Assembly (NCBI GenBank): GCA_937914725.1
Contig: CALDMJ010000078.1
Span: forward strand, 1-38,638
Length of the DNA: 38,638 nt
Direction of reading: 5' to 3'
Origin: an uncultured Clostridia bacterium
Lineage (GTDB): Bacteria; Bacillota; Clostridia; Christensenellales; UBA1242
The position numbers were made by a program, and so were the translations under genes. A model generated the notes under the pieces. That model saw only the letters and a list, made by a program, of their open reading frames with translations, made no database searches and had not been told where the DNA came from. This document shows positions 7,671 through 38,638 of this stretch, piece after piece. Within the stretch, counting starts at the first letter, position 1; each line of letters starts with the position of its first letter.

Positions 7671-7746
7671 TGGTGACCCATCCGAGGCTCGAACTCGGGA
7701 CAACTTGATTAAAAGTCAAGTGCTCTACCTACTGAGCTAATGAGTC
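7671..7746 (-). tRNA. tRNA-Lys (anticodon UUU), CCA encoded
   Basis: I folded the reverse complement by hand. Acceptor GACTCAT/ATGGGTC has one G-U pair. The D-arm is GCTC-AGTAGGTA-GAGC. The anticodon arm is CTTGA-CTTTTAA-TCAAG, giving UUU. The T-arm is CCGAG-TTCGAGC-CTCGG, followed by discriminator A and CCA. Total length is 76 nt. Confidence 0.92.
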
Positions 7747-9544: not shown

Positions 9545-9907
9545 TGACAAAAAACAAGACCGGATAAAATGCAAATGATTTGTAGGGATTGCACCTGCAG
9601 CCGTGGGCTATCCCATCGAACAGATATATAATTATATAATATAGAATGCACTTATGTGCGCCGTCCGCACAAATCAGTTGGGCGTAGGGATTACACCTGC
9701 AGCCGTGGGCTATCCCATCGAGCATACAAATAACATAGAATGCACTTATGTGCGCCGTCCGCACAAATCAGTTGGGCGTAGGAATAGTACTTACAGCCGT
9801 GGGCTATCCCACCGAGCAGATATATAATATAGAATGCAGATAAATATGCCGCCCCAAGAATTGTTTGCTTGTAAAGATAGTATCTGCAACGGTGGCTTGC
9901 GCCCCAC
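9545..9907 (-). repeat. Array 1 of the structured ~94-nt repeat family (4 units, minus orientation)
   Basis: On the plus strand, units begin at 9641, 9735 and 9829, a period of 94 nt. Each reads ATAGAATGCA..GCGCCGTCCGCAC..GCGTAGGGAT..CTGCAGCCGTGGGCTATCCC..CGAG. Units 2 and 3 are identical over about their first 48 nt. The first unit (9545-9623) is degenerate at one end and the last abuts the stop codon at 9908. Confidence 0.85.
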
Positions 9908-11088: not shown

Positions 11089-11375
11089 CTCGGCGGGGAT
11101 AGCCCCGCGGCTACAGGTACTGTCCCTACACGCAAGCCATCTTCGCAGACGGCGTAGTTTATTCTTTTTATGAATTGTATATCCTCGGCGGGGATAGCCC
11201 ACGTCTGCGGGTACTATCACTACAAGTCATATACATTTTTGGGCGGCGAAGTTGTTTTATTCTATATTATTTGTATTCTCGGTGGGATAGCCCCGCGGCT
11301 ACAGGCACTGTCCCTACCACCTAAGACATTCACGCGGACGGCGTTTATTTATGCCCCCCCCTATAATTGTTACCC
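11089..11375 (+). repeat. Array 2 of the repeat family (3 units, plus orientation)
   Basis: CTCGG unit heads lie at 11089, 11184 and 11278, giving periods of 95 and 94 nt. Each unit reads CTCGG-GGGGATAGCCCC-GCGGCTACAGGTACTGTCCCTAC-variable-GACGGCG-T-rich. The array is inverted relative to array 1. Confidence 0.85.
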
Positions 11376-16351: not shown

Positions 16352-18577
16352 ATGAATAAAATTAGTTATTTTATTGCGACAATTGTTTTGTCAGTGTGCC
16401 TCATCGGCTTTAGCGCGTGCGGCGGCAGCAACAAGGGCAAAACAATTCAAGGCGCGGAAGCGGTAGGTCTCAAGGTGTATTATCACGTCAGCGAAACTAT
16501 CGACTTTGCGTCAGTTAAAATCAAAGTCACCTATGACGACAAGTCAACGACGGAACTAACAAAAGGTGAAGTCGACATTGACTCTACAAACGCAAAGGCG
16601 GACACACAGTTTGTACTTGGCACAAACGGACTTTCCGCACAACAAGGCGGCAGCCTCACTGCGGGCGAATACAAAATCACGTGCCAAATTGTTGGCGACA
16701 AAACAAACGCCAAATACGAACTTATGACAGTAATTGTATCGACGGATATGTCGCTTGTCTACGATTTACAACTTTTTGAAGCCCCGCAATTTATTGATAC
16801 ATTTAATGAAAATAATCAATCATCCGCGACAAATGAAAGCAATTTTTATAAGACGACCGACTACTATGTTGGCGACGACAACGCGTTTGTGCTTAATCCA
16901 GTGCTCAAATTAATGAGCAAAAAGGACGCAAGTATTGCAACGGTTACTGATTTCAAGGCTAATGTTAAAGTCGAAATCAAGGGTGCGGACGCGTTCAGCG
17001 AAGTCACGGACGACACATACTTTGATTATGCTAACTTCAAGTTCAATTTCAAGGAAAGCGCAATCGGGCACAAATTTAGAATTACAATGACCCCAGCCGA
17101 ATTTGATGCTGACTTTGCGGGTAACCCAATTCAACCCGTTGTGTTTACGGTTGTAGTTGCGGACGGCTACAATGTTTACGACGCTGTTGACCTTGGTAGA
17201 ATCAACATTGTTTCGGACAATGTGAAAAATCAAATCACTGTGGACAGCAATTCGTGGAGTCGGGACGGCAATTCGTGGGGACGCACATTTTACACAAACA
17301 CACAAGAAAATACGCGCAAAAATATAAAATACAGCGACATTTGGTTGCCTTTCCTTGCTAGCGAGGGCAAAACCGATTTAGAACCCATCAACGGCGTTTT
17401 CCTTCACGGCAACATTAATGTGACACCTAACGACATTCCTAGCGAATACTTTATTGGCGAAGCGGAGGCTGCTGCAAACGGCGCAAGCAAATCGGCAGGT
17501 TCTTTGCGCGACTGCGCTGAACTTTACACACACTACCTTGAAAATGATTTTACTTTCAACGGAAACTTGTTCAAAATCGACTTCAGCGCTATCCCTTGGT
17601 GCCGCAACAATAAAGACTATGATCCGTTCTACTTCCCTGACGAAGGTGCAGACACACACGCGACACCGGGGCACGCAACTGCGTTTGTTATGGCAAACAA
17701 GTCGGATGAAAGCAACAACACAAAGGCGTACTTTATAAATGTTGAGGCAGTCGGCAACACTGCAAATGCATCACTCAGTGCAAAAGAAGGCGAGGACCTT
17801 TTGGCGGCTGGCGGACTTATTATGATAAAATCAATCACGTCAACAACTGTTGCTGAAAACAATATCGCAAAAGGTTGGATGATTGCGTGGTTTGCTGAAA
17901 TGACCGACAATATCAACTCTCTTGAAATGAATTATATCAAAACATATGACTGCTTCAACAGCGGAATTTACAACTACGGCAGCGAAAAGAACACACTCGC
18001 GAACTCCGAGTTCAAGCGCTTCGGCGGTCCAGTCATCCTTGCGACAAGCATCGCGACGGATTCAGGCGAAAAGCGCGATGGTGTCGGCTTTACGATTGAT
18101 AAAAATACAACTACGCTTGAAAGTTTCGTCAACGGCACGGAAGCGTGGTTTACAATTGTCAAAGCAAATACAATCGTGGCGCCATTCTTCGCGCTCGACC
18201 AATTGTTCAATGCGTACGGCAACACGGTTTTGCAAGCGCAAGAAGGTAAAAATTATATGAATATGATAGCAATTTGTCTTGACTCAGATACTGTTACGTC
18301 TACCGACCCAACATACGCAACTCTCGAATATGGCAACAATAAATACGCGCTCGACAAAGATGAAAACAACCCTATCAATCAAATTTGGACGCAAGCAAAA
18401 ACTGCCGTATTCCTCTCGAGTGGCGGACAAATCGCATATATGCCAAATGAAAAATCTATAACATTCATAAATGATGCAACAACCTTTACAGGTGACAACC
18501 TATTCATTGCCTACCCAATGAATGCAACGGCAACGGCAGGCGTCCTTGTCTCTCTCTACACAATCACCGCCGCTTAA
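16352..18577 (+). CDS. Large hypothetical lipoprotein
   Basis: The ATG at 16352 is preceded by AAGGAGAA. The signal peptide ends in the lipobox GFSAC. The mature protein of about 720 aa has no recognised catalytic motif. Confidence 0.7.
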   Translation: MNKISYFIATIVLSVCLIGFSACGGSNKGKTIQGAEAVGLKVYYHVSETIDFASVKIKVTYDDKSTTELTKGEVDIDSTNAKADTQFVLGTNGLSAQQGGSLTAGEYKITCQIVGDKTNAKYELMTVIVSTDMSLVYDLQLFEAPQFIDTFNENNQSSATNESNFYKTTDYYVGDDNAFVLNPVLKLMSKKDASIATVTDFKANVKVEIKGADAFSEVTDDTYFDYANFKFNFKESAIGHKFRITMTPAEFDADFAGNPIQPVVFTVVVADGYNVYDAVDLGRINIVSDNVKNQITVDSNSWSRDGNSWGRTFYTNTQENTRKNIKYSDIWLPFLASEGKTDLEPINGVFLHGNINVTPNDIPSEYFIGEAEAAANGASKSAGSLRDCAELYTHYLENDFTFNGNLFKIDFSAIPWCRNNKDYDPFYFPDEGADTHATPGHATAFVMANKSDESNNTKAYFINVEAVGNTANASLSAKEGEDLLAAGGLIMIKSITSTTVAENNIAKGWMIAWFAEMTDNINSLEMNYIKTYDCFNSGIYNYGSEKNTLANSEFKRFGGPVILATSIATDSGEKRDGVGFTIDKNTTTLESFVNGTEAWFTIVKANTIVAPFFALDQLFNAYGNTVLQAQEGKNYMNMIAICLDSDTVTSTDPTYATLEYGNNKYALDKDENNPINQIWTQAKTAVFLSSGGQIAYMPNEKSITFINDATTFTGDNLFIAYPMNATATAGVLVSLYTITAA

Positions 18578-18732: not shown

Positions 18733-20148
18733 CTAGAGCAATTTAGGCAGTCCATCTTTACTAGGCGCAAGATCCCACACATTTTCGTCAAGATTATCAT
18801 ACCCTAAAGTTAGTATGTTATTAACATTTTGATATCCCGTTACATCGCCCAAAATTTCACCTTTCTTTTGATAAACGGCATAATTAACGTGTTCATAAAC
18901 TGGATCACCATTCCTATCATTATAAAGTTTTATATTCTCATCATAATCATAATAAGCAATGTTGCTAAGCAAAGTTTCCGCTACTGTATGTGCAAAATCA
19001 TATGCGTGAACATATCGCGACTCTTGTCCATCCGTATTATCACCCATATTGCATTTTTTTGCGTAAGCGTATGAATTTTCAACCCTGCCTAAAAGCTTTC
19101 CGCCAAACCCGCACAAATATACATCGTGACGTACGCCTCTAAAAATACCGCTGACAAGCCCTTCTTTGCCTGTCATAGTGCCTGAAGCACCCGAATCTTT
19201 GATACTTCCTTTGTAATACCCAACTAAAAGACCTACCCACGTTGCAGCAGTAACCCTATTCCCGCCATACGAGAATACATCAAACATAGCATCATTAACA
19301 ATTGTTTTTTCAATCACGCCACTACTACTTATTTCTTTACCAACAACTCCGCCAATAAAATTACTATCAGTATCACTTGATAATTTTCCTGTAATTGAAC
19401 CGTAATAACTACATCTTTTAATTCGCGCGCAATCCGATTCTCCAACAATGCCTCCGATATTGCACGCGTGTAATGCTCCAAGCTTTAATGTCATTTTTGA
19501 ATTTATATTTTCAAAATAGCAACTATCCGCATAACCCACTGCGCCACCAAAACTTGTCATAAGTCCTTCATTTATGACAATTACTCCATACAGGTCACAA
19601 TTTTGGAATCTAGTATCGTGCGCTTCGCCTACAAGTGCTCCCACATATAATTTGTACGCTTTTTCATTTCCTTCTGCGTCAACTTTGACCGAATATTTCC
19701 AACTTATAGCAACATTAAGCTTAAGGTTTTTTATAGTTGCTTTGTTGGTATATGCAAAAAGCCCCATTTGCATTGTATCGGAAACTTTGTTGTCTTCATT
19801 ATATGTCCACCCCATACCTTTAACAGTGTGCCCATCACCATCAAATTTACCTGAAAATTTTTTTATTGGAACCCAGTTTGCGCGCACACTTCCGTCCTCA
19901 TTATAATTTGTCAAATCAATATCATTGCCAAGTTTATAGGAATAACTAGGGTTCAACCTTACAGCATTTAATTCTTCGCAGTCAGTTATAACATACGGGT
20001 CGCTTTCAGTTCCTGAGCCAGTTTCATAAATGTGGCTTACATCAACACGTTTATCGCCTTCAGATTTTTTACCAAAAATTCCACACCCGCAAAAAAGTCC
20101 CGCACATAAACAAATTATTAATGTCGTAATAATTATTTTATAATTCAT
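18733..20148 (-). CDS. GLUG-motif repeat lipoprotein
   Basis: 471 aa with the lipobox LFCGC. It has repeated G-G-[IVLA]-[VA]-G segments (VGALVGEA, GGAVGYA, GGIVGES, GGVVGKE) typical of GLUG repeats. Its RBS is AGAGGGGTG. Confidence 0.7.
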   Translation of the reverse strand: MNYKIIITTLIICLCAGLFCGCGIFGKKSEGDKRVDVSHIYETGSGTESDPYVITDCEELNAVRLNPSYSYKLGNDIDLTNYNEDGSVRANWVPIKKFSGKFDGDGHTVKGMGWTYNEDNKVSDTMQMGLFAYTNKATIKNLKLNVAISWKYSVKVDAEGNEKAYKLYVGALVGEAHDTRFQNCDLYGVIVINEGLMTSFGGAVGYADSCYFENINSKMTLKLGALHACNIGGIVGESDCARIKRCSYYGSITGKLSSDTDSNFIGGVVGKEISSSGVIEKTIVNDAMFDVFSYGGNRVTAATWVGLLVGYYKGSIKDSGASGTMTGKEGLVSGIFRGVRHDVYLCGFGGKLLGRVENSYAYAKKCNMGDNTDGQESRYVHAYDFAHTVAETLLSNIAYYDYDENIKLYNDRNGDPVYEHVNYAVYQKKGEILGDVTGYQNVNNILTLGYDNLDENVWDLAPSKDGLPKLL

Positions 20149-20160
20149 TGCTGCACCCCT

Positions 20161-21552
20161 CTATTCTTCACTTTTTATTGTCAGGTTTTTATATTCATAC
20201 GGAATATCATTGTAAATAAGTTTGGGGAGCAAATCACCTTCTTCTTGCGTCCAAATGCCCTGCCCGTCGGGAAACTCAACCATTTGCCCAACAGTTGCTT
20301 TCATATAAATTCCTTCTTCTTCAATAAAGTGGTTTGGCTTAATTGGGTGATATATCCCTGCAAAGGATTGATTATAGTAATAACAATTGCTTACAAAATG
20401 GTCATCCCCGCCAAAAATTACGCCATATCCGGTTGTATTCGTTACTGAAAGATGCGAAATAACATTGTTTATTTTCCCGTCCGAAATACCTGCCACGCCT
20501 GCAACCATAAATTGGATGTAGTATTCCTCTTGCTCAAAAAGTGTTACGGGAGGCTGATATTCTTCACTCACACTAAAGACAGCCGCACAGTTTTTAATAC
20601 TGCCATCTTTCTTATTTATCCCTGCTATACCACCTACTACATATGGCATATTAGATTTGTAATCGGTCAAACTTAATTTGCTTTTTAGCACTGCATTCAA
20701 GCGCACTTTGCCCACATCGCTCACACATTTTTCGACCGTACCATTTAACATCCCTACTATTCCCCCAACACAAGTGGTGCTAACAAATTCTTCACTATTT
20801 AAAACTTTTCCTGTTCTATTTAATTCGCTTCTACCCTTGCGAACATAAGCAGTAACATCTAGCGTTCCATTGAACACACAGTTTTCTATATTTGTGCCAT
20901 AGCCCGCTATTCCACCTACGCGCTGACGCCCTTCGCCGTTTCCTGAGTATATGTTTGTTGTAATTTTCACACTTGATGTGCAGTTTCTAATTGTTCCAGT
21001 AGATTCGCCAACAAGTCCACCAATTGCGCCATAATCAGTATTTGCCTTAAAAGTGCCTGTAACGTGACAATTTTCAATCAAATTATCGGACGAGTTAGCA
21101 ATAGTGCCCAAATACCAAAAATTGTTGTTACAATCTATGTTTACATCAAGATTTAGATTTTTGATTTCGCCAGAACATGACCCAAACAAATTATTATTTA
21201 GATTTTTTATCGTGTGGTTATCTCCATCAAAATATCCTTCAAACGGGACGATAGGTTTCCATATAGTAGTTGGATTACCATCAGAATCTTCTCCTTCCCA
21301 ATCGGCTAAATCAATATCAACAGTTAGTTTAAAATAACGTTTAAATTTATCTAGCTTAGACATAGAACTTAATCGATATGCATTGTCAACAATATATGGG
21401 TTTGATTCAGTGCCCTTGCCTTCCGCATAAATCTCTGATGCAATCTTCTCAATTTTGTCATTATATTTTTTTTCGTTTATTGCTCTTGCTATTGCACCCC
21501 CGCCTATTAAAACTCCGATTACTACTATAGTGATTATAATCTCTTTCCACAT
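20161..21552 (-). CDS. GLUG-motif repeat protein, paralog with N-terminal TM anchor
   Basis: GLUG-like boxes are GGLVGES, GGIAGYG, GGIVGML, GGIAGIN and VAGVAGIS. It shares the N-terminal module G(S/T)ESNPY/GTESDPY with its neighbour. I prefer the ATG at 21552 (GGGGATGAG RBS) over the TTG at 21594. It ends 12 nt upstream of the next gene. Confidence 0.7.
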   Translation of the reverse strand: MWKEIIITIVVIGVLIGGGAIARAINEKKYNDKIEKIASEIYAEGKGTESNPYIVDNAYRLSSMSKLDKFKRYFKLTVDIDLADWEGEDSDGNPTTIWKPIVPFEGYFDGDNHTIKNLNNNLFGSCSGEIKNLNLDVNIDCNNNFWYLGTIANSSDNLIENCHVTGTFKANTDYGAIGGLVGESTGTIRNCTSSVKITTNIYSGNGEGRQRVGGIAGYGTNIENCVFNGTLDVTAYVRKGRSELNRTGKVLNSEEFVSTTCVGGIVGMLNGTVEKCVSDVGKVRLNAVLKSKLSLTDYKSNMPYVVGGIAGINKKDGSIKNCAAVFSVSEEYQPPVTLFEQEEYYIQFMVAGVAGISDGKINNVISHLSVTNTTGYGVIFGGDDHFVSNCYYYNQSFAGIYHPIKPNHFIEEEGIYMKATVGQMVEFPDGQGIWTQEEGDLLPKLIYNDIPYEYKNLTIKSEE

Positions 21553-21827
21553 ATTCTCATCCCCACTGCACTTAGATTTGATCGCATAATACAAAATGCG
21601 GTACTATATTATTTGTGATACTGTTTGCTTTTTATTTTATATTTTTTAGTGATACTGTTTTTTTCGCGGCAAAATTGCAGTCGTGCAACGGTTTGTTGCA
21701 CGACACATTTTGCCATTGCACGATTGTTTTTGCGCTCGCGCTTTTTTACTTTTGCACATTTTTTCCCTATTGCGCAATTTTTCTCTCTTGTGACATTTTT
21801 TTAATTATTCATTAATTGTTTTTTCAA

Positions 21828-24116
21828 TTATTCGTTGTCAGCGCCGCTTGTTGCTTCGATTGCGTTGCTGACATCTTCCCAAAGGTCGTCAATGCTGCTT
21901 GTTGCGTTTATTTTGTACGTTACGGTCATCTCGGATGTCGATGACGATGTTGTTGTTTGAGAAGTAGTTGTAATACTTTTGATTTTACCATTCTCTAATG
22001 TAAAGGTTATGTTATTATTTGATTGAGTATTTGCGTCCTCCATACTCGTCATTGTTACAACAAAACTACTAGAATTCTTTTGAATTTTCATTTGGGCACT
22101 TTCACCAGCAGCCATAAATTCAACTACTTCGTCAATAGTGCTAAAATTCCAAAAAACTCTCATAATTGCAGATGTCAAAAGCGCCTCTAACATTGCTTCT
22201 TGAAATTCACTTTCATTGGTATATGTTGTTTTTTCAAAAACATTATTATACTTTTCGTAGAATGTTTTATTCTTGACGTCAATTTGAATTTTCTGCGCGA
22301 TAGATCCCACCTCTGGAGCCCCTTGATTTATGTCAACAAGATAACTAAATACTGCTTTTTGAGTCTTAGCATCATATGTTTCAGTAATCATAGGAGTGTT
22401 CCCTTGATATGCTGTAATTGTATAATCATTAGCAAGAGTATTATTTATTACTTGACGAAGTTCAGCAAACAACGCGTTTTGTTGCTCAGCATTTTGATCT
22501 CCAGTTTCGTCATCCCCGCTTGGTTCATCGCCGCCCCCTGTGGTTGCGTTGTCAAACTTTGAAAAGTCAGTTGGCATAATTGTGCTATCGTAGGTGTAAG
22601 TTATTGATTGCGTAGCCGTATAAAGCATCGTTGGCTCGGCTGCAGTCCCGTCATAACGCTCGTACTTTAGTTCCGTTGATGTCAACTTTGTGTCCGCTTT
22701 ATATATTGCGGTTGCTACACAGCGAATCTTTGCTGCACCCTCGCCTTTTTCGTTGCTAACTCGATAAATTGCAACATAAAGATTGCCGACTTTTTGGACG
22801 TTTTTCTCGAATGTTGCTTCACTTTCAAATGCAACTCCAAATACTTCCGCAAACATTGCATTCAATTCTACACTAGTTGGTTCTTGAATTTGAACGGCAA
22901 GTGCACCACTTCCAATTGAGTACTCATCTCCTACTTGATTTGCTGGTACTTCTTCCACACTTTTTTGAACTGTTGTTCCCGCGCTTTGGTAGGTATACAG
23001 ATTATATGTATTGCCATTTTTCTTCAAGTACGCTTCGCTTACCATTGAATCACTTGTAGCAACATATGCAAATTCGCCCGTTTCACCATTATAAGATACC
23101 ACTCCTATAGTATCAACGTTGACTTCCTCAAATAACATTCCAACGCCATTAGCAGTCATTCTTACTGTATAAGACCCCTTGTACTCCGCTGTTGTTTTAA
23201 GCGCATTTTCAAACGCTACCTTTGCAGAGTTTTCTTCATCTCCGCTTGGCTCGTCACTAGGCTCATCGCTCGGTTCGTCGTCTCCACTTGGCTCGTCGCT
23301 AGGTTCGTCGCTTGGTTCATCGCCGCCACCTGTGGTTGCGTCGTCAAACTTTGAAAAGTCAGTTGGCATAATTGTGCTATCGTATGCATATGTGATTGTT
23401 TCGGTTTGCGTGTATGACAAAGTTGCTTCGGTTGCAGAACCACTAAAAGTCTCATACTTTGATGCGATTGACGTCAACTTTGTGTCCGCTTTATATGTTT
23501 CGGTTGCCACGCAGCGAACTTTTGCTTCGCCCTCGCCTTTTTCGTTGCTAACTTCATAGGTCGCGACATTAAGTTTGCCGTCCTTTTTGACGCTCTTATT
23601 AAATGTCGCTTCAGTTTCAAACGTAACACCGAATACTTGCGCAAACATTTCGTTTACTTCTTCGCTGGTCGGTTCTTTGACTTGCACGCCTGACATCCCG
23701 CCTGCGATTGAGTATTTTCCAACTACCTCACTTGCTGGTAATTCTTCCACACTCTTGTCGATTGTAGTTCCTATTTTTGTATAGGCATATTTTTTATAGG
23801 TATCGCCGTTTTTCTTCACGTACATTTCATCTGCTACAGAACCGCTTGATATAATGTACGCGAACTCGCTCGTTTCGGCGTTATAGGTAATAACGTCCGT
23901 ATCTTCGCCAGTCATTGCATTGCTTTTAGAAGTCATTCTTACTGTATAAGAACCCGTGTACTCAGCCGTCGTTTTGACTGCTTTGTCAAACGCGTCCTTT
24001 GCGGCGCTATCACCACCGCCAAACAAATCGCACGCGCTGAACATTACTGCTACAACAAACATCGTTGCGATTAGTAGCGCATACTTCACTGCGCCAAAAA
24101 CATTTTGTTTTGTCAT
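21828..24116 (-). CDS. Lipoprotein with an internal ~264-aa tandem duplication and acidic DEPS linkers
   Basis: 762 aa with the lipobox MFSAC. Two homologous modules begin AFDKAVKTTAEYTGSYTVRMT and AFENALKTTAEYKGSYTVRMT. They are separated by GGGDEPSDEPSDEPSGDDEPSDEPSDEPSGDEE. The RBS is AAGGAGAA. Confidence 0.75.
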   Translation of the reverse strand: MTKQNVFGAVKYALLIATMFVVAVMFSACDLFGGGDSAAKDAFDKAVKTTAEYTGSYTVRMTSKSNAMTGEDTDVITYNAETSEFAYIISSGSVADEMYVKKNGDTYKKYAYTKIGTTIDKSVEELPASEVVGKYSIAGGMSGVQVKEPTSEEVNEMFAQVFGVTFETEATFNKSVKKDGKLNVATYEVSNEKGEGEAKVRCVATETYKADTKLTSIASKYETFSGSATEATLSYTQTETITYAYDSTIMPTDFSKFDDATTGGGDEPSDEPSDEPSGDDEPSDEPSDEPSGDEENSAKVAFENALKTTAEYKGSYTVRMTANGVGMLFEEVNVDTIGVVSYNGETGEFAYVATSDSMVSEAYLKKNGNTYNLYTYQSAGTTVQKSVEEVPANQVGDEYSIGSGALAVQIQEPTSVELNAMFAEVFGVAFESEATFEKNVQKVGNLYVAIYRVSNEKGEGAAKIRCVATAIYKADTKLTSTELKYERYDGTAAEPTMLYTATQSITYTYDSTIMPTDFSKFDNATTGGGDEPSGDDETGDQNAEQQNALFAELRQVINNTLANDYTITAYQGNTPMITETYDAKTQKAVFSYLVDINQGAPEVGSIAQKIQIDVKNKTFYEKYNNVFEKTTYTNESEFQEAMLEALLTSAIMRVFWNFSTIDEVVEFMAAGESAQMKIQKNSSSFVVTMTSMEDANTQSNNNITFTLENGKIKSITTTSQTTTSSSTSEMTVTYKINATSSIDDLWEDVSNAIEATSGADNE

Positions 24117-24351
24117 AATTGTTTTCTCCTTTCCCTCATAAATTTTCGATATTTATACTTATATATATGTATACATTTGCGTATAAATGTAGATAAATAT
24201 ATACATATATGTTATACACGCAACGCAACAAATTGTCAAGTATTTTCGGCAAATTTTTCCTCGATTTGCCATTTTTTTACATAAATTGCGCCTAATCGCC
24301 GCCACAAATCTACATAATGCACAACATATTGCCATCCCACCACTTAAACAA

Positions 24352-24387
24352 CAAAAAAAAGCGGAACAGTCACCCAACTGCTCCGCT
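24352..24387 (-). terminator. Rho-independent terminator of the zinc-ribbon/acidic protein gene
   Basis: The minus strand reads AGCGGAGCAG-ttgggtga-CTGTTCCGCT followed by a T8-9 run. Confidence 0.7.
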
Positions 24388-24459
24388 CTAAGTTATTTTA
24401 TTAAAAATATTATTATTGTATCTTACGACAAGTCACGGTATTAGTGAAACTTGGCGGGG

Positions 24460-27364: not shown

Positions 27365-28411
27365 ATGAGAACTTTTAATTATACAGATTTAAAGAACACT
27401 AAGTGGGACAATGAGATTGTGGCATATGTTGCGCAAATTCACGAACACAAGGCAAAGCAAGAATTATATCTAAAGCAAAAACCACAAGAACTACAAAAGC
27501 TTGTCGAAATTGCAAAGGTGCAAAGCACGCTAAGTTCTAATGCTATTGAGGGCATTAGGACAACAAACACGCGGCTAAAACAACTTGTCAATGAAAAGAC
27601 AACGCCAAAAAATAGAGATGAAGAAGAAATTGCGGGCTACCGTGATGTTTTGGAAACAATTCACGCAAGTTTTGAGTATATACCTATTACCCCAAATTAT
27701 ATTTTGCAACTTCATAAAATGCTTTATAGTCATTCTTCAAAAGCGATTGGGGGAACTTTTAAAAACGTTCAAAACTATATAAGTGGCACAGATTCAAACG
27801 GTCAAACTTATACAATTTTCACACCTCTACCGCCGTTTGAAACGCCTATTGCTATTGAAAACATTTGCAATGAGTTTAACAAAACTATCGCGGAAAATGA
27901 AGTTGACCCGCTCATTTTGATACCGATTTTCATACACGACTTTTTGTGCATTCACCCATTTTTAGACGGCAACGGCAGAATGAGTCGTCTGCTAACGACG
28001 CTACTACTTTATAGGTGCGGCTATATGGTGGGCAAATACATTTCACTTGAAGCCAAAATCGCAAAAAACAAAAACCTTTACTATGACGCGCTCAAGCAAT
28101 CTCAAGAAAACTGGCAAAGCGGCAAAGACAACCCCGAAAGTTTTATCAAATATTTGCTAGGAACAATCATAGCCGCCTATAGAGATTTTGAAGAAAGGGT
28201 TGATATTGTATCATCAAAATCTACCGCACTAGAAATGGTTAGAAAAGCAGTAACCTCTGTTATCGGCAAGTTTAATAAGTCGTCTATCATTGCCCTGTGC
28301 CCTAGTTTGAGTGTCAAATCTATTGAAAGTTCGCTCAAAAAACTTGTAGATGAAAATTTTATCGAAAAACAAGGCTTAGGCAAAAATACCTACTATATTA
28401 GAAAAAATTAA
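27365..28411 (+). CDS. Fic-family protein with an N-terminal inhibitory motif
   Basis: 348 aa with the Fic core HPFLDGNGRMSRLL, which fits HxFx[DE]GNGRxxR. The upstream SSNAIEG fits the [ST]xxxE[GN] alpha-inh motif. The C-terminal part looks winged-helix-like. Confidence 0.9.
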   Translation: MRTFNYTDLKNTKWDNEIVAYVAQIHEHKAKQELYLKQKPQELQKLVEIAKVQSTLSSNAIEGIRTTNTRLKQLVNEKTTPKNRDEEEIAGYRDVLETIHASFEYIPITPNYILQLHKMLYSHSSKAIGGTFKNVQNYISGTDSNGQTYTIFTPLPPFETPIAIENICNEFNKTIAENEVDPLILIPIFIHDFLCIHPFLDGNGRMSRLLTTLLLYRCGYMVGKYISLEAKIAKNKNLYYDALKQSQENWQSGKDNPESFIKYLLGTIIAAYRDFEERVDIVSSKSTALEMVRKAVTSVIGKFNKSSIIALCPSLSVKSIESSLKKLVDENFIEKQGLGKNTYYIRKN

Positions 28412-31339: not shown

Positions 31340-31466
31340 TGCTTGTAGGCGCTATCCCTAAATCCGCAACACTATCCCGAAAAAAGGTACATAGTAATTT
31401 AACTATGTACCCAATTACATATAGTGTCACCTAGCCCAACCTATAGCAGCGGGGCTATCCCCGCAA
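31340..31466 (-). repeat. Repeat-family module (unit plus GGTACATAGT hairpin) downstream of the UPF0104 gene
   Basis: GGTACATAGT-aattta-ACTATGTACC (31386-31411) is followed by CAATTACATATAGTGTCACCTAGCCCAACCTATAGCAGCGGGGCTATCCCCGC. This is the reverse complement of the 38556-38638 module. A further degenerate GTAGGCGCTATCCC unit lies at 31345. Confidence 0.75.
31380..31411 (-). terminator. Intrinsic terminator supplied by the repeat module
   Basis: The minus strand reads GGTACATAGT-TAAATT-ACTATGTACC followed by TTTTTT. It lies about 75 nt downstream of the stop at 31485. Confidence 0.6.
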
Positions 31467-32816: not shown

Positions 32817-33153
32817 TTGCCCATTAACCCTTTCACTTAGTATTAGTATAATAGCAAAAAAACATTTTTTTGTCAACACAAAACCCCCCACATACAAAAA
32901 AAGCACATAGTCAAATGACTATGTGCATAATGTGCTTTTGTGTCGTCCAACCAACATCCGTATTTGTGGCGTAAACCATACAAATATGACCACCCTATAG
33001 ATACAAGTTCCCGTCCTCTAAGATTTATATACATAGTAATGTTCCCTGCACCAATGCTCCTGTCATACAAATACAGCGTCTCATAAATATTACTAGGTAT
33101 ACCACCTATAAAAGTAGTTCACTCGTAAGAACAACACGCCAGTGGCTTTGCCA

Positions 33154-33534
33154 TCAGCCGCCCGCACCTGCAGAGCCCGTTGGACCTGTCGGACCTGTCG
33201 CGCCTGTGGCACCACGTGGGATGAAGAAATTGAGAGTATGCACATTGCCAACAATTGTGTCAGTAACGTATGCTTCTTCATCTGGCTCAAGAGTGGTGGT
33301 TTCGCCAACAGCAAAGATTGGGGAAATGCCGTCTGCGCCTGTTGCACCCGTCGCACCTGTCGGTCCTGTTGCGCCCGTCGGGCCGGTAACCCCTTGCGCG
33401 CCTTGCGGCCCTGTCGCACCCGTCGGCCCTATCGGTCCAACAATCGCGCCAGTCGCGACGACTGTGCTTGCCGTTCTAAAACGAGGCGTCGGGCAACAGC
33501 ATCGACATCTAGTGCATCCGCAAATATTGCACAT
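33154..33534 (-). CDS. Small collagen-like (G-X-T repeat) protein with a Cys-rich N-terminus
   Basis: The 126-aa product begins [15 protein letters not shown], with 7 Cys in 14 residues. About 17 GxY triplets follow ([22 protein letters not shown]...), then a 35-aa non-collagen insert ending FFIPRG. More GxY triplets run to the stop. The RBS is AGAGGTGA. Confidence 0.65.
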
Positions 33535-33620
33535 CTTTCACCTCTTGTTTTGTAGCACATTTTGTTTTGTGCTACACTTCATAGTATGCACGAAATTTGT
33601 TTGTGTGCAATTATATACGA

Positions 33621-33930
33621 AAACGGGGATAGCCCCGCTGCTGCAGGCACTGTTCCTACGCGCAAGTTGGTTACGTGGGCGGCGAACTTGTTTGCTTGCT
33701 ATAAGCACTTGTTCTCGTGTGGGGATATCCCCGCTGGTGGCAAACGCCACTGGTACAAATACTGTACCTACGCCAAATTAACATACGCGGACGGCATTGT
33801 TTTGTGCCTTCTTTATACTCTCATCCTCGAAACAGACGCCGCTTGTGCAGATTTGGCGGGAAAACCCGCCGCTACAGGTTCGGTACGTGACTACATACAA
33901 TTTTGGTACATAGTTAATTGACTATGTACC
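33621..33930 (+). repeat. Composite repeat block (3-4 plus-orientation units ending in the GGTACATAGT palindrome)
   Basis: Hairpin heads GGGGATAGCCCC (33625), GGGGATATCCCC (33721) and GCGGGAAAACCCGC (33856). Palindrome GGTACATAGT-TAATTG-ACTATGTACC lies at 33905-33930. The segment 33625-33764 recurs at 38415-38554. Confidence 0.85.
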
Positions 33931-33949
33931 AATTTCATATAATGCCACT

Positions 33950-34290
33950 CACCCAACCTGCAGTAGCGGGGCTTTCCCTCACGCGTGAACAAACTATAAT
34001 AGTAAGTTCGCAAATACGCCGTCCACCAAAGTGACTGACGCGTAGGAACAGTACCTGCAGCAGCGGGGCTTTCCCCGCCTGCACCTGTGGCGTTTGTCAA
34101 CGAACAATAAATATTGTAGAAAGCACATATATGTGCCGCACGCGAAAGTAATTTACACGTAGTGACAGTACCTGCAGCCGTGCGCTATCGCCCCCACGAG
34201 GTGCATCCTAACTAGAAAGCGCTACAAATTTGCCGTCCACGCAAGCAACTTACGCGTAGTAACAGTATCTGTAGCTGTGCGCTTTCGCAC
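33950..34290 (-). repeat. Array of 4 minus-orientation units convergent on the preceding block
   Basis: GTAG-type heads lie at about 34042 (GTAGGAACAGTACCTGCAGCAGCGGGGCTTTCCCCGC), 34159 (GTAGTGACAGTACCTGCAGCCGTGCGCTATCGCCCC) and 34256 (GTAGTAACAGTATCTGTAGCTGTGCGCTTTCGCAC). A partial unit lies at 33957-33985. GCCGTCCAC boxes precede each head. Confidence 0.8.
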
Positions 34291-34662
34291 TTATTTAAAA
34301 ATCAAGTTGCCCGAAAAATCGAACTCAAAATAGTCATCATCAACCGCATCATAGTCCACATCAAAGCGTGGCTCTTTGGGATATGCTACCATTCTTGATA
34401 CGCGAAGATTGAGACTCTCGCACAAAATCAAAAACTCCCGCAAAGTGAGCGTGCCTTGCTCATCCCCCAAAAATTGACGCAACCGCTCATAATCAATGCC
34501 GCAACTTTCGGCAAACGCCTTGATTGAAATGTTTGGCTTTTTAGGCGCTTGCGCAACATTCTTTGCAATGCCTTTCAGCCATTTTTCAACATCCTTTCTC
34601 GCCCGCTCTCCACTGCCCATTGTCACAACAACGGTTTTTACAAACTCCTCGTCACTCTCCAT
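34291..34662 (-). CDS. Hypothetical HTH-containing protein (acidic N-terminus)
   Basis: The C-terminal half, SIKAFAESCGIDYERLRQFLGDEQGTLTLREFLILCESLNL, looks like an XRE-type helix-turn-helix. I prefer the ATG at 34662 (GAGG 5 nt upstream); the ORF track extends to 34710. Confidence 0.5.
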   Translation of the reverse strand: MESDEEFVKTVVVTMGSGERARKDVEKWLKGIAKNVAQAPKKPNISIKAFAESCGIDYERLRQFLGDEQGTLTLREFLILCESLNLRVSRMVAYPKEPRFDVDYDAVDDDYFEFDFSGNLIFK

Positions 34663-34715
34663 TGCCACCTCATCGCCTCTCATTATATCACTATTTTTAG
34701 TAATTGACAACTATT

Positions 34716-34733
34716 TTTAACGATATCGTTAAA
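34716..34733. promoter_or_regulatory. Perfect 18-bp palindrome in the divergent intergenic region (candidate operator)
   Basis: TTTAACGATATCGTTAAA is perfectly self-complementary. It lies between the divergent HTH genes, just downstream of a TTGACA hexamer (34704-34709) and a duplicated CTATTTTTA (34691 and 34711). Confidence 0.45.
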
Positions 34734-34789
34734 CTTAACCCCTAAAATAAGCTATGCAACTTGTTAAAATTCATTTGAGGTAATAAATT

Positions 34790-35032
34790 ATGACTATTGG
34801 CGAGGCATACCTAATTAGGTTAAATAAATTGTTGAAAGACAAAAACATAACAACATATAGATTTGTTAAAGAAAGTTGCATCCCTGAAGCAACTTTGAGA
34901 AACTTGAAAACAAAAAGGTCGAAAAGCCCTAAAATGTCATTGTTCTATCAAACAGCAAACGCACTTGATATGACAATAAATGAATTTCTTGACGACCCAA
35001 TTTTTAATAGTGACGATATCGAATTTTTGTGA
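34790..35032 (+). CDS. 80-aa XRE-like HTH protein, paralog 1 of 3
   Basis: MTIGEAYLIRLNKLLKDKNITTYRFVKESCIPEATLRNLK... ends in DDIEFL. GAGGT RBS lies 9 nt upstream. Confidence 0.7.
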   Translation: MTIGEAYLIRLNKLLKDKNITTYRFVKESCIPEATLRNLKTKRSKSPKMSLFYQTANALDMTINEFLDDPIFNSDDIEFL

Positions 35033-35042
35033 GGCAATTTTT

Positions 35043-35285
35043 ATGACTTTGACTGAAGCATATATTATAAGGTTAACTGAACTACTAAATGAGAGAAACA
35101 TAACTTTCTACAAATTTGCCAAAGAAAGTTGTATACCACATACTACAATAGAAAATTTGAAGAAAAAAGTTACAAAAAGCCCGTCGCTGAAATTGATATA
35201 TCAAACAGCAAACGGGCTCGGTATGTCAGTCGTCGAATTTCTTGACGACCCTATTTTTTGTAGTGATGATATTGAATTTTTGTGA
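35043..35285 (+). CDS. 80-aa XRE-like HTH protein, paralog 2 of 3
   Basis: MTLTEAYIIRLTELLNERNITFYKFAKESCIPHTTIENLK... ends in DDIEFL. By manual count 52 of 80 residues are identical to paralog 1. Its RBS GAGG overlaps the stop of paralog 1 (TTTTTGTGAGG). Confidence 0.7.
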   Translation: MTLTEAYIIRLTELLNERNITFYKFAKESCIPHTTIENLKKKVTKSPSLKLIYQTANGLGMSVVEFLDDPIFCSDDIEFL

Positions 35286-35294
35286 GGACAAGCA

Positions 35295-35537
35295 ATGACA
35301 ATAAGTGAGGCATACATTTTGAGATTGAAAGAACTACTGAAAGAGAAGAAAATGACACAATATAGGTTTGTGCGCGAAAGTTGCATTCCTATGTCGACAT
35401 TGCAAAGCATAAAACAAGGTAAAACAAAAAGCCCTAATATGACGTTATTTTTTATGACGGCATACGGACTTGGTATTTCGGTTGTCGAATTTCTTGACAG
35501 CCCCTACTTTAATATGGACGATATTGAATTTTTGTAA
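35295..35537 (+). CDS. 80-aa XRE-like HTH protein, paralog 3 of 3
   Basis: MTISEAYILRLKELLKEKKMTQYRFVRESCIPMSTLQSIK... ends in DDIEFL. It shows the same stop/RBS overlap junction (TTTTTGTGAGG). Confidence 0.7.
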   Translation: MTISEAYILRLKELLKEKKMTQYRFVRESCIPMSTLQSIKQGKTKSPNMTLFFMTAYGLGISVVEFLDSPYFNMDDIEFL

Positions 35538-35568
35538 GAGGTGATTTTGGCAATCAACAAACTCATAA

Positions 35569-36345
35569 TCATTCATACGAAATTAAATTAAATTTTTTTG
35601 AAATTTTTTCGCCATATTCTCCAGTAAGTTTAAACATTAAATATGAACAATGTGAATTTTTGACAGAAAATCTTGTATTGAATTTTTCGCTAAAATTAAA
35701 CTTTGTTTCTAGTAAATTTAGTTCATCATCATACCATTCAATTTTGTTGGTCTTATCACAAGTTATAGATATCGTTCCTTCATAATTATTGATACTAATA
35801 TCTAAAATTCTAGGTGTAAAGCCACATTCATTTTTAAGTAAGTTTATTTCATTCTCATTATATTCTGATTCAATTAATGGCAAATAGGACTCTTTAATTT
35901 CAATATTTTTGCCACCAAACTTTTCTAAATTTGCAACAATTTTCCATCTATAAACCTTATTTCTTTCTTCAAATTCTATTTGTGCCTTGGCTAAATGTTT
36001 TGCAAATTCAAATTCGTTACAATTATTAACTTTCATAAAATGTTTCTTTGCGTTTTCTCCAAAACCTAGCCTTTGCGAATTTCTTATGTGTATAACTCCA
36101 TGACATCTACTACAAATGGCAATTATATTTTTGAGTGTTTGAGTTCTTGTTTCAATGTTAAAATCCCACACCTCATGAGCATCTAAATCATCAGTCTCAA
36201 AACCACAAATAGCACATTTATGATTTGCTTTGTCATAACAAAATTTTCTCAAAACATCCCAATCTTTTTTAGGTAAAGTTTTACTAAAATCATTACCCCA
36301 AGCACCTTTGGGCAATAATTCAATTTTTAATTTCACATCTTTCAT
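35569..36345 (-). CDS. HNH-like zinc-finger nuclease-fold protein with an unknown C-terminal domain
   Basis: CAICGFETDDLDAHEVWDF...IAICSRCHGVIH shows a CxxC...H-E...CxxCH..H arrangement, as in phage-associated HNH proteins. The C-terminal ~130 aa are unassigned. The gene is visibly AT-rich. Confidence 0.55.
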   Translation of the reverse strand: MKDVKLKIELLPKGAWGNDFSKTLPKKDWDVLRKFCYDKANHKCAICGFETDDLDAHEVWDFNIETRTQTLKNIIAICSRCHGVIHIRNSQRLGFGENAKKHFMKVNNCNEFEFAKHLAKAQIEFEERNKVYRWKIVANLEKFGGKNIEIKESYLPLIESEYNENEINLLKNECGFTPRILDISINNYEGTISITCDKTNKIEWYDDELNLLETKFNFSEKFNTRFSVKNSHCSYLMFKLTGEYGEKISKKFNLISYE

Positions 36346-36352
36346 ATTTTAC

Positions 36353-36838
36353 CTACCTTGTTGGATATAACTCGCCTGATATGTATTTATTCATATAGTT
36401 TTCAAACCCCATTTTAGCAATTAATTCTTCTTGGTCGAATGGGTTTACTGCCTTTATGTTTCCCGTCATTTCATCAAAAGGTGTTCCGTAACAAATAATT
36501 CCAACAGGTTTTATTACTTCCAGCATTTTATTATAACTTTTCATAAACTCATATTTATATTCCTGTCTACAATAAGTTGAAACCGCAACCACAGAACCTT
36601 GCTCTATACCATCAAAGCAAAAATCATAACTATCGCTGCCAGCACAACAAACGGTTGGAATTACCTTCATTCCATATTTTTGGAAAAAGGCCCCACACCA
36701 CCTATTTTTGAATGTACTATATATTTGAAGAGCCTTTGGCATATCCCAGTACAAGCTAAATTCGGGAGATAACACTGCATAATATTGTTTCAATTTTTCC
36801 ATAGCTAATTCTGGCTTTTCGTAAACATTTCCAAACAA
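36353..36838 (-). CDS. DUF4417 domain protein, apparently 5'-truncated or degraded
   Basis: LSPEFSLYWDMPKALQIYSTFKNRWCGAFFQKYGMKVIPTV...GIEQGSVVAVS matches my recollection of DUF4417. The frame stays open upstream to 36979 and encodes IHFFTYDW, also DUF4417-like, but with no ATG. The ORF-track start is a TTG. Confidence 0.6.
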   Translation of the reverse strand: MFGNVYEKPELAMEKLKQYYAVLSPEFSLYWDMPKALQIYSTFKNRWCGAFFQKYGMKVIPTVCCAGSDSYDFCFDGIEQGSVVAVSTYCRQEYKYEFMKSYNKMLEVIKPVGIICYGTPFDEMTGNIKAVNPFDQEELIAKMGFENYMNKYISGELYPTR

Positions 36839-37126
36839 CCAATCATAAGTAAAGAAATGTATTGTTTTATTGCTGTTTTCTTCATCTTTTAGTTTTGTTT
36901 TTGTATAATTCCATAAGTCTATTTTATCTAAGTCAATTTCTTGTTTCTTAATTAGTGGTATACCATATTTGCAACTGTTTTAAATTCATTTCTTACTAGT
37001 TTAAGTTTTTTTAACAACTTTTCGTTTTCATATTCTGTTTTTTCCTGTATTAAATGGTTATCTACTTAATATTTCTCTTTCATAAAAACTCCTTTCAAAT
37101 AATCATAAATTCATTCTTCACAATTT

Positions 37127-37426
37127 TCATTTATTGTTTTGAAGTTTATCAAAATATTCTTGTGATATTTCTATAGCATAAAATCTATTGTTTTTAAAAT
37201 TAGCTAATATTTCGTTTTTATTTTCTTCCCAAAATTTCTTATACTGGTTTAAACTCATTTCATTTGCACCCCCCATATAATCTGGCTGTTCGTTTTGTAT
37301 ATCATCATCCTCCCAACCACAATACGGGCAGATGTCATATGAATTTTTTATGTCCCCCATACCACACACTTTGCATTTGTATGGTGGGCAATCTATTTCG
37401 TTTTTATTTTTTTTACTATTAATCAT
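37127..37426 (-). CDS. CPCC-family cysteine-rich protein
   Basis: CPPYKCKVCG...DICPYCGWEDDDIQ...PDYMGGANEMSLNQYKKFWEE is the classic CPCC (Cys_rich_CPCC) pattern. I prefer the ATG at 37426 with AAAGGAGA just upstream. Confidence 0.75.
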   Translation of the reverse strand: MINSKKNKNEIDCPPYKCKVCGMGDIKNSYDICPYCGWEDDDIQNEQPDYMGGANEMSLNQYKKFWEENKNEILANFKNNRFYAIEISQEYFDKLQNNK

Positions 37427-37436
37427 AATTTCTCCT

Positions 37437-37769
37437 TTAATTCCAATGGTCTCCCCATTTTTCATATTGTTTATAAAAATATTTTATGCCATCTCTAGGT
37501 GGAAAATATGTCACAATCTTACCGTCCCTAGAAATGACCATAAATTCGTTTGTTTCTTTATCATATTTATATGTTGAATTATGTTTATGTTCATTTGCAA
37601 TAAAAGATATTATATTGTCATCTTCTTTCACTGCAAATTCTTTTGCTTCTTTTGAATACCCTTGAATATTATTTTCAAACCCCATTTGCTTGCCATGCCG
37701 TTTATAATGTTCAACTTCAGTATATTCACTTGTCCAATATTCAGCATAAGTACTAGGACCTTTCTCCAT
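37437..37769 (-). CDS. Hypothetical 110-aa protein resembling a stand-alone polymorphic-toxin C-terminal (RNase-like) domain
   Basis: The pattern HYKRHGKQMGF..YSKEAKEF...GKIVTYFPPRDGIKYFYKQ resembles CdiA-CT/BECR-type RNase toxin domains as I remember them. The RBS is poor and an in-frame TAA lies immediately upstream of the ATG. Confidence 0.35.
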   Translation of the reverse strand: MEKGPSTYAEYWTSEYTEVEHYKRHGKQMGFENNIQGYSKEAKEFAVKEDDNIISFIANEHKHNSTYKYDKETNEFMVISRDGKIVTYFPPRDGIKYFYKQYEKWGDHWN

Positions 37770-37947
37770 TTATTATATCATACCCCCTTTTAGAATGCAA
37801 AAGGTTGAAGACATATATATCTCTTCAACCTCTTGCCTACATTATATCACTGTATTTTACAAAGTCAATATTTTAGTACCATACTTTTTAATTTTCATTT
37901 CAAATTTTTTTTCGTTTTTAATGACAAGCAATTCAATAACAAGTTAC

Positions 37948-38394
37948 TCACTTTTTGACGGTGCTGCCGAAGCCTCCGTTGCGCGCGGCGGTCACTTCTT
38001 CTTCGTCGTCCACTTTCAAAAATGTGGTGAAGATGCCTTGCCCGATTTTGTCGCCGCGCTTGATTTCATAGGGCTCGGCGCTCAAATTCCTGAGCATAAA
38101 CCCGATGTTGCCTTCGTTGCCCGCGTTGTTGTAGTAGTCCGCGTCGATAACGCCGATTCCGTTGGCAAGCACGATGCCGCGTTTGCCCATTCCGCTGGTT
38201 GAGCAGAGAATTAGCACTTCATTTTCCTCAAAGCGTGCTTTGATGTCTGTAAAGATAAGTTTTGCGGCGTTTGGCTCAATTGTCACATCTATTGGCGAAT
38301 AAAAGTCGTAACCTGCGGACGCTTTTGTTGCGCGGTTCGGCATTTTTATTTCGCTGTCGTATTTTCTACTATTCACTATTTCAAATTTTCTCAT
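37948..38394 (-). CDS. dut: dUTP diphosphatase (trimeric dUTPase)
   Basis: 148 aa with the motifs ATKASAGYDFYSP, GVIDADYY and a C-terminal RNGGFGST. Confidence 0.9.
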   Translation of the reverse strand: MRKFEIVNSRKYDSEIKMPNRATKASAGYDFYSPIDVTIEPNAAKLIFTDIKARFEENEVLILCSTSGMGKRGIVLANGIGVIDADYYNNAGNEGNIGFMLRNLSAEPYEIKRGDKIGQGIFTTFLKVDDEEEVTAARNGGFGSTVKK

Positions 38395-38410
38395 ACTCTC
38401 CTCCGTGGGG

Positions 38411-38638
38411 ATGCGGGGATAGCCCCGCCGCTGCAGGTACTGTTCCTACGCGCAAGTTGGTTATGTGGGCGGCGAACTTGTTTGCTTTCTACAAGCACTT
38501 GTTCTCGTGTGGGGATAGCCCCGCTGGTGGCAAACGCCACTGGTACAGATACTGGCGGGGATAGCCCCGCCGCTGCAGGTTTGGTTAGTGGCACTATACT
38601 AAATTAGGTACATAGTTAAATTTCTATGTACTTTTTTT
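38411..38638 (+). repeat. Composite repeat block (plus orientation), a copy of 33621-33930 with a ~90-nt deletion
   Basis: 38415-38554 aligns without gaps to 33625-33764, with 7 mismatches in 140 nt by manual alignment. It is followed by GCGGGGATAGCCCCGCCGCTGCAGGTTTGGTTAGTGGCAC and the GTACATAG hairpin. Confidence 0.85.
38607..38638 (+). terminator. Intrinsic terminator at the end of the repeat block
   Basis: GGTACATAG-ttaaattt-CTATGTAC is followed by T7 at the window edge. Confidence 0.55.

Follow-up and report, generated by a model that had tools for sequence, protein, structure and literature searches.

Here we analyse a stretch of 38,638 nucleotides (nt) from an uncultured gut Clostridia bacterium (contig CALDMJ010000078.1, hereafter the window), in which two 140-nt direct repeats enclose a group of genes that an initial annotation, made from the sequence alone, had read as an AT-rich accessory island bracketed by repeats and inverted arrays. 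We consider it probable that two unrelated things are superimposed here, a clade-specific family of small interspersed repeats and a discrete AT-rich cassette of 2.3 kb, and the other genes between the repeats, which a relative conserves, are ordinary backbone. Each 140-nt repeat covers the first one and a half units of an array (B1 on the left, B3 on the right) that belongs to an interspersed family with units of roughly 94 nt. The repeats are unsuitable for defining a mobile island, the real accessory unit being the 2.3-kb toxin/nuclease cassette.

On realignment, the two copies match over 140 nt without gaps and with 7 mismatches (at 33639, 33648, 33674, 33698, 33702, 33728 and 33758), exactly as first annotated. 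The left copy (33625-33764, plus strand) comprises unit 1 and the double-hairpin start of unit 2 of array B1, and the right copy (38415-38554, plus strand) comprises unit 1 and the short double-hairpin unit of array B3. A repeat search lists the pair as 141 nt with 95% identity; similarity is lost abruptly beyond both ends, and no perfect stretch exceeds 29 nt. Across four metagenome runs containing this organism, the full 140 nt occurs in exactly two versions, those of B1 and B3, and a 36-nt core reaches 10–15 times the single-copy depth with many different downstream flanks. The initial annotation had set against its own island the case of near-identical copies scattered genome-wide, and this holds for the core, which is multi-copy with diverse flanks, but not for the full 140 nt, of which there are only two copies. 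No deletion or circle junction in register with B1 and B3 was found in four low-depth contig runs, which is a weak test, and where joints are reported in Logan contigs, they reflect cross-matching between paralogous units and are never in register. We also rejected a template and variable repeat of a diversity-generating retroelement, as the mismatches are not adenine-specific and a reverse transcriptase is absent.

The repeat unit was described from an alignment of 46 near-full-length units taken from the window and four related genomes. It is about 94 nt long and opens with a hairpin of 5 bp and a 4-nt loop, which reads ATAG in 33 of the 46 units; this is followed, in order, by GCTGCAGGTACTGTCCCTAC, about 22 variable nt, GGACGGC, about 14 nt, TTTCTAT, about 10 nt and GTTCTCGG. 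At least six stem types occur (CGGGG/CCCCG, GTGCG/CGCAC, GTGGC/GCCAC, GCGGG/CCCGC, GCGGC/GCCGC and TGGGG/CCCCA), with 89.6% of hairpin cells paired compared to 63% in shuffles. Double-sided stem changes number 54 compared to 20 in shuffles, a value as high as which none of 500 shuffles gave; thus, the stem covaries. The 20-nt core box occurs nine times in the window at three or fewer mismatches, where no occurrence is expected by chance. RNAalifold gives no consensus fold beyond the hairpin for the unit alignment, and a known RNA family was rejected because no Rfam family matches the repeat, at either gathering or E-value thresholds. A role of the units as sigma-70 promoters was likewise rejected: a promoter scan finds none inside array B3, and inspection by eye finds no properly spaced −35/−10 pair in either orientation.

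Units stand singly or in tandem arrays of up to five, and they combine with two further kinds of module. Short units consist of a hairpin or double hairpin plus GCTGCAGGTACTG, fused directly to the next hairpin; the right 140-nt copy ends in one of these. Many arrays close with an end module, GCAGGTTTGGTNAGTGGCACTATA, followed by the palindrome GGTACATAGT-N6-ACTATGTACC. A strong T-run, where present, lies mostly on the hairpin-first (forward) side of this palindrome, which suggests that the end module acts as an intrinsic terminator for transcripts running through the array. Between B1 and B2 lies one such palindrome (33903-33932, no strand assigned), on which the two arrays converge and which is part of a recurrent terminator-like end module, and members of the palindrome family are also found at 31386-31409, 32903-32925 and 38607-38630 and in the related loci L003, L005, L007, L012 and L016. 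The end module can itself be tandem, occurring three times in L003 (689-917) and twice in L026 (about 200-400).

Seven arrays of the family were counted in the window, and coordinates are given here for six. Array A- (9568-9906, minus strand, four units) begins 1–2 nt after the stop codon of a replication-initiator-like gene and array A+ (11091-11370, plus strand, three units) is divergent from that gene and lies upstream of yqeY, an arrangement that recurs in L030 and L010. A solitary end module (31380-31466, minus strand), with hairpin, terminator palindrome and T-run, follows the MprF-like gene. The three others were delimited with nhmmer. B1 (33624-33901, plus strand) has two units of about 94 nt and a diverged end module and begins 89 nt upstream of a divergent collagen-like gene; B2 (33938-34290, minus strand) has three units and an end module, its first hairpin lying directly after the TAA stop of a 139-aa gene; and B3 (38412-38633, plus strand) is made up of a long unit, a short double-hairpin unit and an end module, with about 20 nt between its first hairpin and the start codon of the dUTPase gene dut and with its intrinsic terminator, plus T-run, at 38606-38633. 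The minus-orientation array (33938-34290) and the genes at 34291-38394 therefore do lie between the repeats, as had been annotated.

Scanning the GTDB species genomes, we found the exact core at 13 loci in two metagenome-assembled genomes (MAGs) of uncultured Clostridia, CAKVOD01 and JBNMHN01, and further copies are present in every close relative fetched. Viral contigs gave no copies, and the metagenome-contig collection scanned gave only two true matches. The family is limited to a narrow clade, and a full-text literature search did not find it.

In the related MAGs, arrays follow rpsG (S7) and fusA (EF-G) inside the str operon, as well as dnaN (in both MAGs), recX, jag/yidC and others. Because core genes such as rpsG, fusA, dnaN and recX precede arrays, these are not tied to accessory genes. 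A gene is recognisable on the hairpin side of 31 arrays, of which 19 share its orientation and 12 are divergent from it. The distance from stop codon to array start is −12 to +8 nt in 10 of the 19 co-oriented cases, examples being TAA|hairpin after the 139-aa gene and after dnaN (L012) and TAG|hairpin after rpsG. For dnaN in L013 (about 2338-2348) and a gene in L016 (about 16880-16892), the TAG of the loop ATAG is the stop codon itself, and since the loop serves as the stop, the repeat has taken over the native gene end at both. Where an array is divergent, it reaches up to its neighbour's ribosome-binding site or promoter, as seen about 20 nt from the dut start and at the extended −10 of the initiator-like gene. 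Judged by this abutment at stops, ribosome-binding sites and promoters, arrays fill intergenic space up to its functional edges, at core and accessory genes alike.

The family is diverged, with a median pairwise identity of 58% between units (95th percentile 69%) and no clustering by genome. All unit pairs of at least 85% identity lie within one locus: tandem neighbours in L006, in L016 and in array A- of the window, an inverted pair 370 nt apart in L012, and B1 and B3, separated by 4.8 kb. Because such pairs are intra-locus only, we interpret B1/B3 as a recent local duplicate or gene-conversion tract in an old family of slow turnover.

To place the repeats in context, we compared the window and L001, which extends it, with L016, a 234-kb contig of a relative (84–88% nucleotide identity) found through an ortholog of the MprF-like protein (92% identical). 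They are collinear at 81–89% nucleotide identity and share the order sulfatase, DUF4926, terminator and array, dut, a first variable slot, three helix-turn-helix (HTH) genes, the 139-aa gene, a second variable slot, the collagen-like gene, the MprF-like gene, a transglutaminase-like gene and TilS. The array upstream of dut is thus present in L016, with a different unit composition. Syntenic orthologs in L016 at 84% nucleotide identity exist for both dut (37948-38394, minus strand), whose GC content of 48.5% is host-like, and the 139-aa gene (34291-34710, minus strand), which has no family match, and the triple of tandem 80-aa Cro/C1-type HTH_26 paralogs (34790-35537, plus strand) is conserved there as well. 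Because L016 is collinear yet lacks the left 140-nt copy, these genes belong to the backbone and the left copy is lineage-specific. The three HTH paralogs, 67–71% identical to each other at the nucleotide level, are divergent from the 139-aa gene and stand beside a slot that takes different accessory genes. The collagen-repeat protein gene (33154-33534, minus strand), small and with a Cys-rich N terminus, is also kept in the sister genome.

The two slots differ in content. The first holds AT-rich DNA in the window and, in L016, 0.4 kb with a 79-aa phage-like gene fragment (phrog_15286). The second (33624-34290) holds B1, B2 and their shared palindrome in the window and a 4.5-kb block of three genes in L016, one of them a DUF2201 gene, with no units. 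A contig joint in run X4 (33619 to 34225) suggests a strain without B1, the palindrome and most of B2, with 29 nt on the shorter side of the joint and low support. Elsewhere, the 5.6 kb at 18836-24457 of the window (two Glug/M26-like genes and a 762-aa repeat protein) are replaced in the sister genome, at L016 16895-17362, by 0.47 kb consisting of a two-unit array and an end module.

The AT-rich DNA of the first slot is the second component. The stretch at 35569-37800, noted by eye as far richer in AT than its flanks, indeed has a GC content of 28.9% compared to 39.8% for the window, and the GC content at third codon positions of its genes is 18–31%, against 36–60% for most window genes outside it (the exceptions being the two Glug genes and a Fic gene, 28–35%). 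Also upheld are the gene assignments of the region, namely the three HTH_26 proteins, the HNH endonuclease, DUF4417, Cys_rich_CPCC and the dUTPase. The accessory cassette proper spans 35581-37912 (minus strand; 2.3 kb, four genes, 28.7% GC), sits between the third HTH gene and dut, whose 3′ ends converge, and is absent at the syntenic site of L016. Downstream of a promoter at 37841-37868 (minus strand, TTGACT-16-TATAAT) follow, all on the minus strand, the genes of a 110-aa toxin-domain protein (37437-37769, matching PDB 8ey4), of a Cys_rich_CPCC protein (CPCC; 37127-37465) that overlaps it, of a DUF4417 nuclease (36353-36838 plus an upstream remnant, phrog_940) and of a 258-aa HNH endonuclease (35569-36345, phrog_5200, 4e-32). 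The DUF4417 profile match begins only at position 47, and an in-frame remnant upstream has no start codon; because the N-terminal part is decayed and the remnant startless, we regard this gene as a pseudogene. It is intact (243 aa) in other copies of the cassette. The initial description of the whole cargo as accessory or mobile thus stands for the AT-rich cassette genes, but not for dut, the HTH triple and the 139-aa gene.

Further copies were found through the contigs of homologs of the 110-aa protein. At 78–87% nucleotide identity, L034-L038 and L042 carry the cassette, and at least three unrelated settings are represented: beside a radical-SAM gene and a large serine recombinase (L034), beside Fic and a methyltransferase (L035), and between a 360-aa gene and spoIVA (L038 and L042), a site that in L039-L041 holds the first two cassette genes only. 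Homology between copies stops at 37912, just upstream of the cassette promoter, and on the other side at 35581, among the final codons of the HNH gene. Repeat units were not detected at the other cassette loci (L034-L038 and L042), and the cassette moves between genomes as a self-contained block, independently of the repeats. Its presence elsewhere is also visible in read depth: 37700-37811, the start and leader of the 110-aa gene, stands at 30–45 times depth in runs X3 and X25 compared to about 5 times for the host locus, and one loose contig end matches an L034-type flank, which argues that other, more abundant organisms in the samples carry the cassette. A profile built from 33 homologs of the 110-aa protein matches the PT-VENN domain of PDB 8ey4 (E = 1e-7) and, weakly, colicin D (0.3), and the CPCC gene always follows the 110-aa gene in the copies examined. 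The first two cassette genes look like a toxin and its immunity partner, with CPCC as the presumed immunity protein. No PADLOC defence-system model matches the cargo.

The origin and role of the repeats can be outlined as follows. B1 and B3 would have become a recent local pair through ectopic copying or gene conversion over 4.8 kb, with B1 probably the derived copy, from B3 or from a shared precursor, since the relative lacks B1. New units arise locally, as near-identical unit pairs are found within one locus only. The arrays may be co-transcribed with their neighbours, as hairpins in 3′ untranslated regions or between cistrons, ending at their own terminator module, and they would be largely selfish or neutral elements of the REP/BOX/SPRITE type that serve as substrates for rearrangement.

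Several observations weigh against this outline. Whole units are no more structured than shuffles (minimum free energy z of about −1.3 on both strands), counts of G-U versus A-C pairs in the hairpin favour neither strand, and 12 of the 31 arrays with a recognisable neighbour are antisense to it. Array transcription and the relevant strand are read only from terminator orientation and gene context, and a search for RNA runs holding the repeat sequence found none. The copy number, about one array per 5–10 kb, is extrapolated, and the cassette has neither terminal repeats nor a recombinase of its own. Lastly, the conservation of the boxes at about 58% unit identity suggests purifying selection, and a specific protein-binding function fits such boxes better than pure junk does. 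Together with the precise post-stop hairpins and the replacement of arrays and gene blocks between the sister genomes (L016 has 4.5 kb in place of 33624-34290 and an array in place of 18836-24457), these boxes leave room for a more specific function.

The first alternative takes up this point, holding that the units are not selfish but selected binding or processing sites: an RNA-binding protein or RNase would recognise them in RNA and adjust mRNA 3′ ends and the termination of translation, or a chromosomal protein would bind them in DNA. It accounts for the preservation of four boxes and a hairpin in units that are only about 58% identical and do not cluster by genome, for hairpins immediately after the stops of rpsG, fusA and dnaN, for a terminator consistently on the forward side, and for arrays at the same positions (dnaN, dut and the initiator-like gene) in different species. 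We nevertheless regard it as unlikely: the arrays take both orientations relative to genes (19 versus 12), unit number varies freely between close relatives and strains, a fold signal over whole units is absent, and restriction to a narrow clade is typical of parasitic repeats (PMC3049150).

A slimmer chance goes to a more specific form, in which the units are a selected class of 3′-end elements read by a putative clade-specific factor, be it an RNA-binding or processing protein or a HUH-type or other recombinase. Were this so, a hairpin abutting the stop and followed by three protein-recognition boxes would tie the fate of an mRNA to the termination of its translation or bring about the exchange of gene blocks at sites between genes, and the mutual replacement of arrays and 4–6-kb gene blocks between sister genomes would be explained.

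Improbable, in our judgement, is that the arrays are recombination sites of a cassette-exchange system comparable to integron attC or pdif, served by a putative site-specific or HUH-type enzyme, with B1/B2 as a scar or acceptor site. The hairpin is conserved in structure and not in sequence, as in attC, and units lie directly against stop codons, another attC trait; ...GGTACTG|hairpin is a recurrent breakpoint, synteny breaks fall at array ends near the initiator-like gene, and two sites carry arrays in one genome and a gene block of 4.5–5.6 kb in the other. However, arrays follow core genes in conserved operons (rpsG-fusA and dnaN), the gene blocks that replace arrays are not flanked by units, and units are missing from the ends of the only cassette here shown to be mobile and were not detected at its other loci. 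The units are, moreover, old and diverged, and have not been copied recently across the genome. Pfam scans of the 34 main open reading frames (ORFs) of the 38.6-kb window found no integrase, recombinase or transposase domain, which bears out the absence of such genes stated in the initial annotation.

Least credible, and very improbable, is the reading that the initial annotation had proposed, a single mobile or excisable island in the 4.8-kb segment between the direct repeats, formed by Campbell-type integration or by capture between repeat units and open to loss by homologous recombination between them. In its favour, the two copies, 95% identical over 140 nt, share perfect runs as long as 29 nt, sufficient for RecA-type recombination on occasion, each is the other's only full-length match, and the interior holds accessory-type genes. 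Yet the repeats do not delimit an island: L016 is collinear across the whole interval and, though it lacks the left repeat, retains dut, the HTH triple and the 139-aa gene at the identity of the backbone, so that the segment is not an insertion. In addition, the variable DNA (35581-37912) ends 0.5 kb and 1.8 kb from the nearest repeat copies, a repeat-to-repeat deletion would remove dut, and the four runs, of low-depth contigs only, show no in-register deletion or circle junction.

The setting of these elements is chromosomal. Its genes include two PBP5-type carboxypeptidases, YtfJ, a class I LysRS with tRNA-Lys, SpoU, YqeY, MscS, TilS, a Fic protein and an MprF-like protein, and a phage origin was rejected given these chromosomal genes and a phage collection without any DNA match to the window. 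L001, a gut-metagenome contig, carries the window sequence at 99.95% identity and reaches 1.1 kb past its right end. The tRNA-Lys(UUU) (7671-7746, minus strand) lies about 20 nt upstream of the class I LysRS gene (6083-7651, minus strand) on the same strand. The Fic-domain protein (27365-28411, plus strand) matches the PADLOC SoFic defence model (8e-42), and a Fic gene also adjoins the toxin-cassette copy in L035. The 762-aa ORF (21828-24116, minus strand) contains internal direct repeats of 300 nt and 108 nt at 76–79% identity and hence encodes a repeat protein.

The initiator-like gene between arrays A- and A+ (9908-11032, minus strand) is of phage type (Lin1244_N, phrog_2562). At 10330-10420 it contains CAAAATG(A/T)CGTC in four to five iteron-like copies, among them a 41-nt inverted repeat, and this stretch is 94% identical in a sister species, where the neighbouring part of the gene reaches 84%. 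The arrangement resembles that of lambdoid phages, with an origin lying inside an initiator gene; the gene is nonetheless a conserved single chromosomal gene, with inverted repeat arrays on both sides.

Among known systems, the repeats are a small interspersed repeat family of the REP/BIME, BOX, RUP and SPRITE kind that matches no Rfam family, with many dispersed intergenic copies and a stem-loop with covariation. Other classes of repeat array were considered and rejected. A CRISPR array does not fit, given the 94-nt period, the GGACGGC and TTTCTAT shared by the parts between cores and the lack of cas domains among the 34 main window ORFs, and the architecture is not that of a type III toxin–antitoxin RNA array either. 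The units resemble integron attC sites in being structure-conserved hairpins immediately 3′ of genes and near variable gene slots; however, an attC array was also rejected, as the units are tandem without genes between them, are dispersed and follow core genes, do not bound the mobile cassette and come without an integrase among the 34 main window ORFs.

The closest architectural parallels are the pneumococcal BOX elements, built as boxA-(boxB)n-boxC, and the terminator-like SPRITE repeats (Croucher et al. 2011, PMC3049150). Like these, the family is small, interspersed, intergenic and confined to a narrow clade; it is modular, with a tandem internal module and distinct end modules, one of them similar to a Rho-independent terminator; and it is enriched downstream of genes, probably co-transcribed with its neighbours, and of slow, mostly old turnover. 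The likeness is one of architecture: no sequence relation is evident, though BOX and SPRITE sequences were not directly compared with the units. Whereas boxB measures about 45 nt, the internal unit here measures about 94 nt. The element as a whole is not enclosed by terminal inverted repeats, many arrays begin precisely at the stop codon, and the host is an uncultured gut Clostridia lineage.

REP and BIME elements are hairpin-forming intergenic repeats of enterobacteria, present in hundreds of copies and often located between cistrons or just after stop codons; REPs are 35–40 nt long, are arrayed in both orientations and flank RAYT genes. Liang, Rudd and Deutscher reportedly described in 2015 that REPs lie close to stop codons. 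The present family shares with them intergenic hairpins near stops, arrays and both orientations, and in the window, L010 and L030 its inverted arrays lie on either side of a single conserved gene, that of the initiator-like protein, as REPs flank RAYT. Its unit, with no recognisable relation to theirs in sequence, is, however, much longer, with a hairpin of only 5 bp and a remainder made up of sequence boxes and not of a palindrome. The flanked gene here is a homolog of phage-type replication initiators, and no Y1 (RAYT) transposase was found among about 50 ORFs scanned in the window and the array-bearing loci. An obligate, REPtron-like link to the Lin1244-like initiator gene was rejected, as no units could be recognised at its more distant homologs (65%, 51% and 45% identity).

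With a covarying structure, a modular grammar that includes its own terminator module, and arrays that start at stop codons or even supply them, the family is a candidate system for studying how interspersed repeats originate and spread in Firmicutes. Repeat families of this type break up MAG assemblies, are markers of rearrangement breakpoints and can change the expression of neighbouring core genes, and because of these effects they are useful for annotation and strain typing. The cassette, in turn, resembles polymorphic-toxin cassettes (colicin D-like and PT-VENN) in pairing a toxin-domain protein with a small overlapping Cys-rich CPCC gene, in its AT-richness, in its strain-variable presence and in its many contexts; it differs from them in that the toxin domain stands alone, without a delivery region, and is coupled to a pair of DUF4417 nuclease and HNH genes. 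The cargo is thus an ordinary, though neatly delimited, toxin/nuclease cassette.

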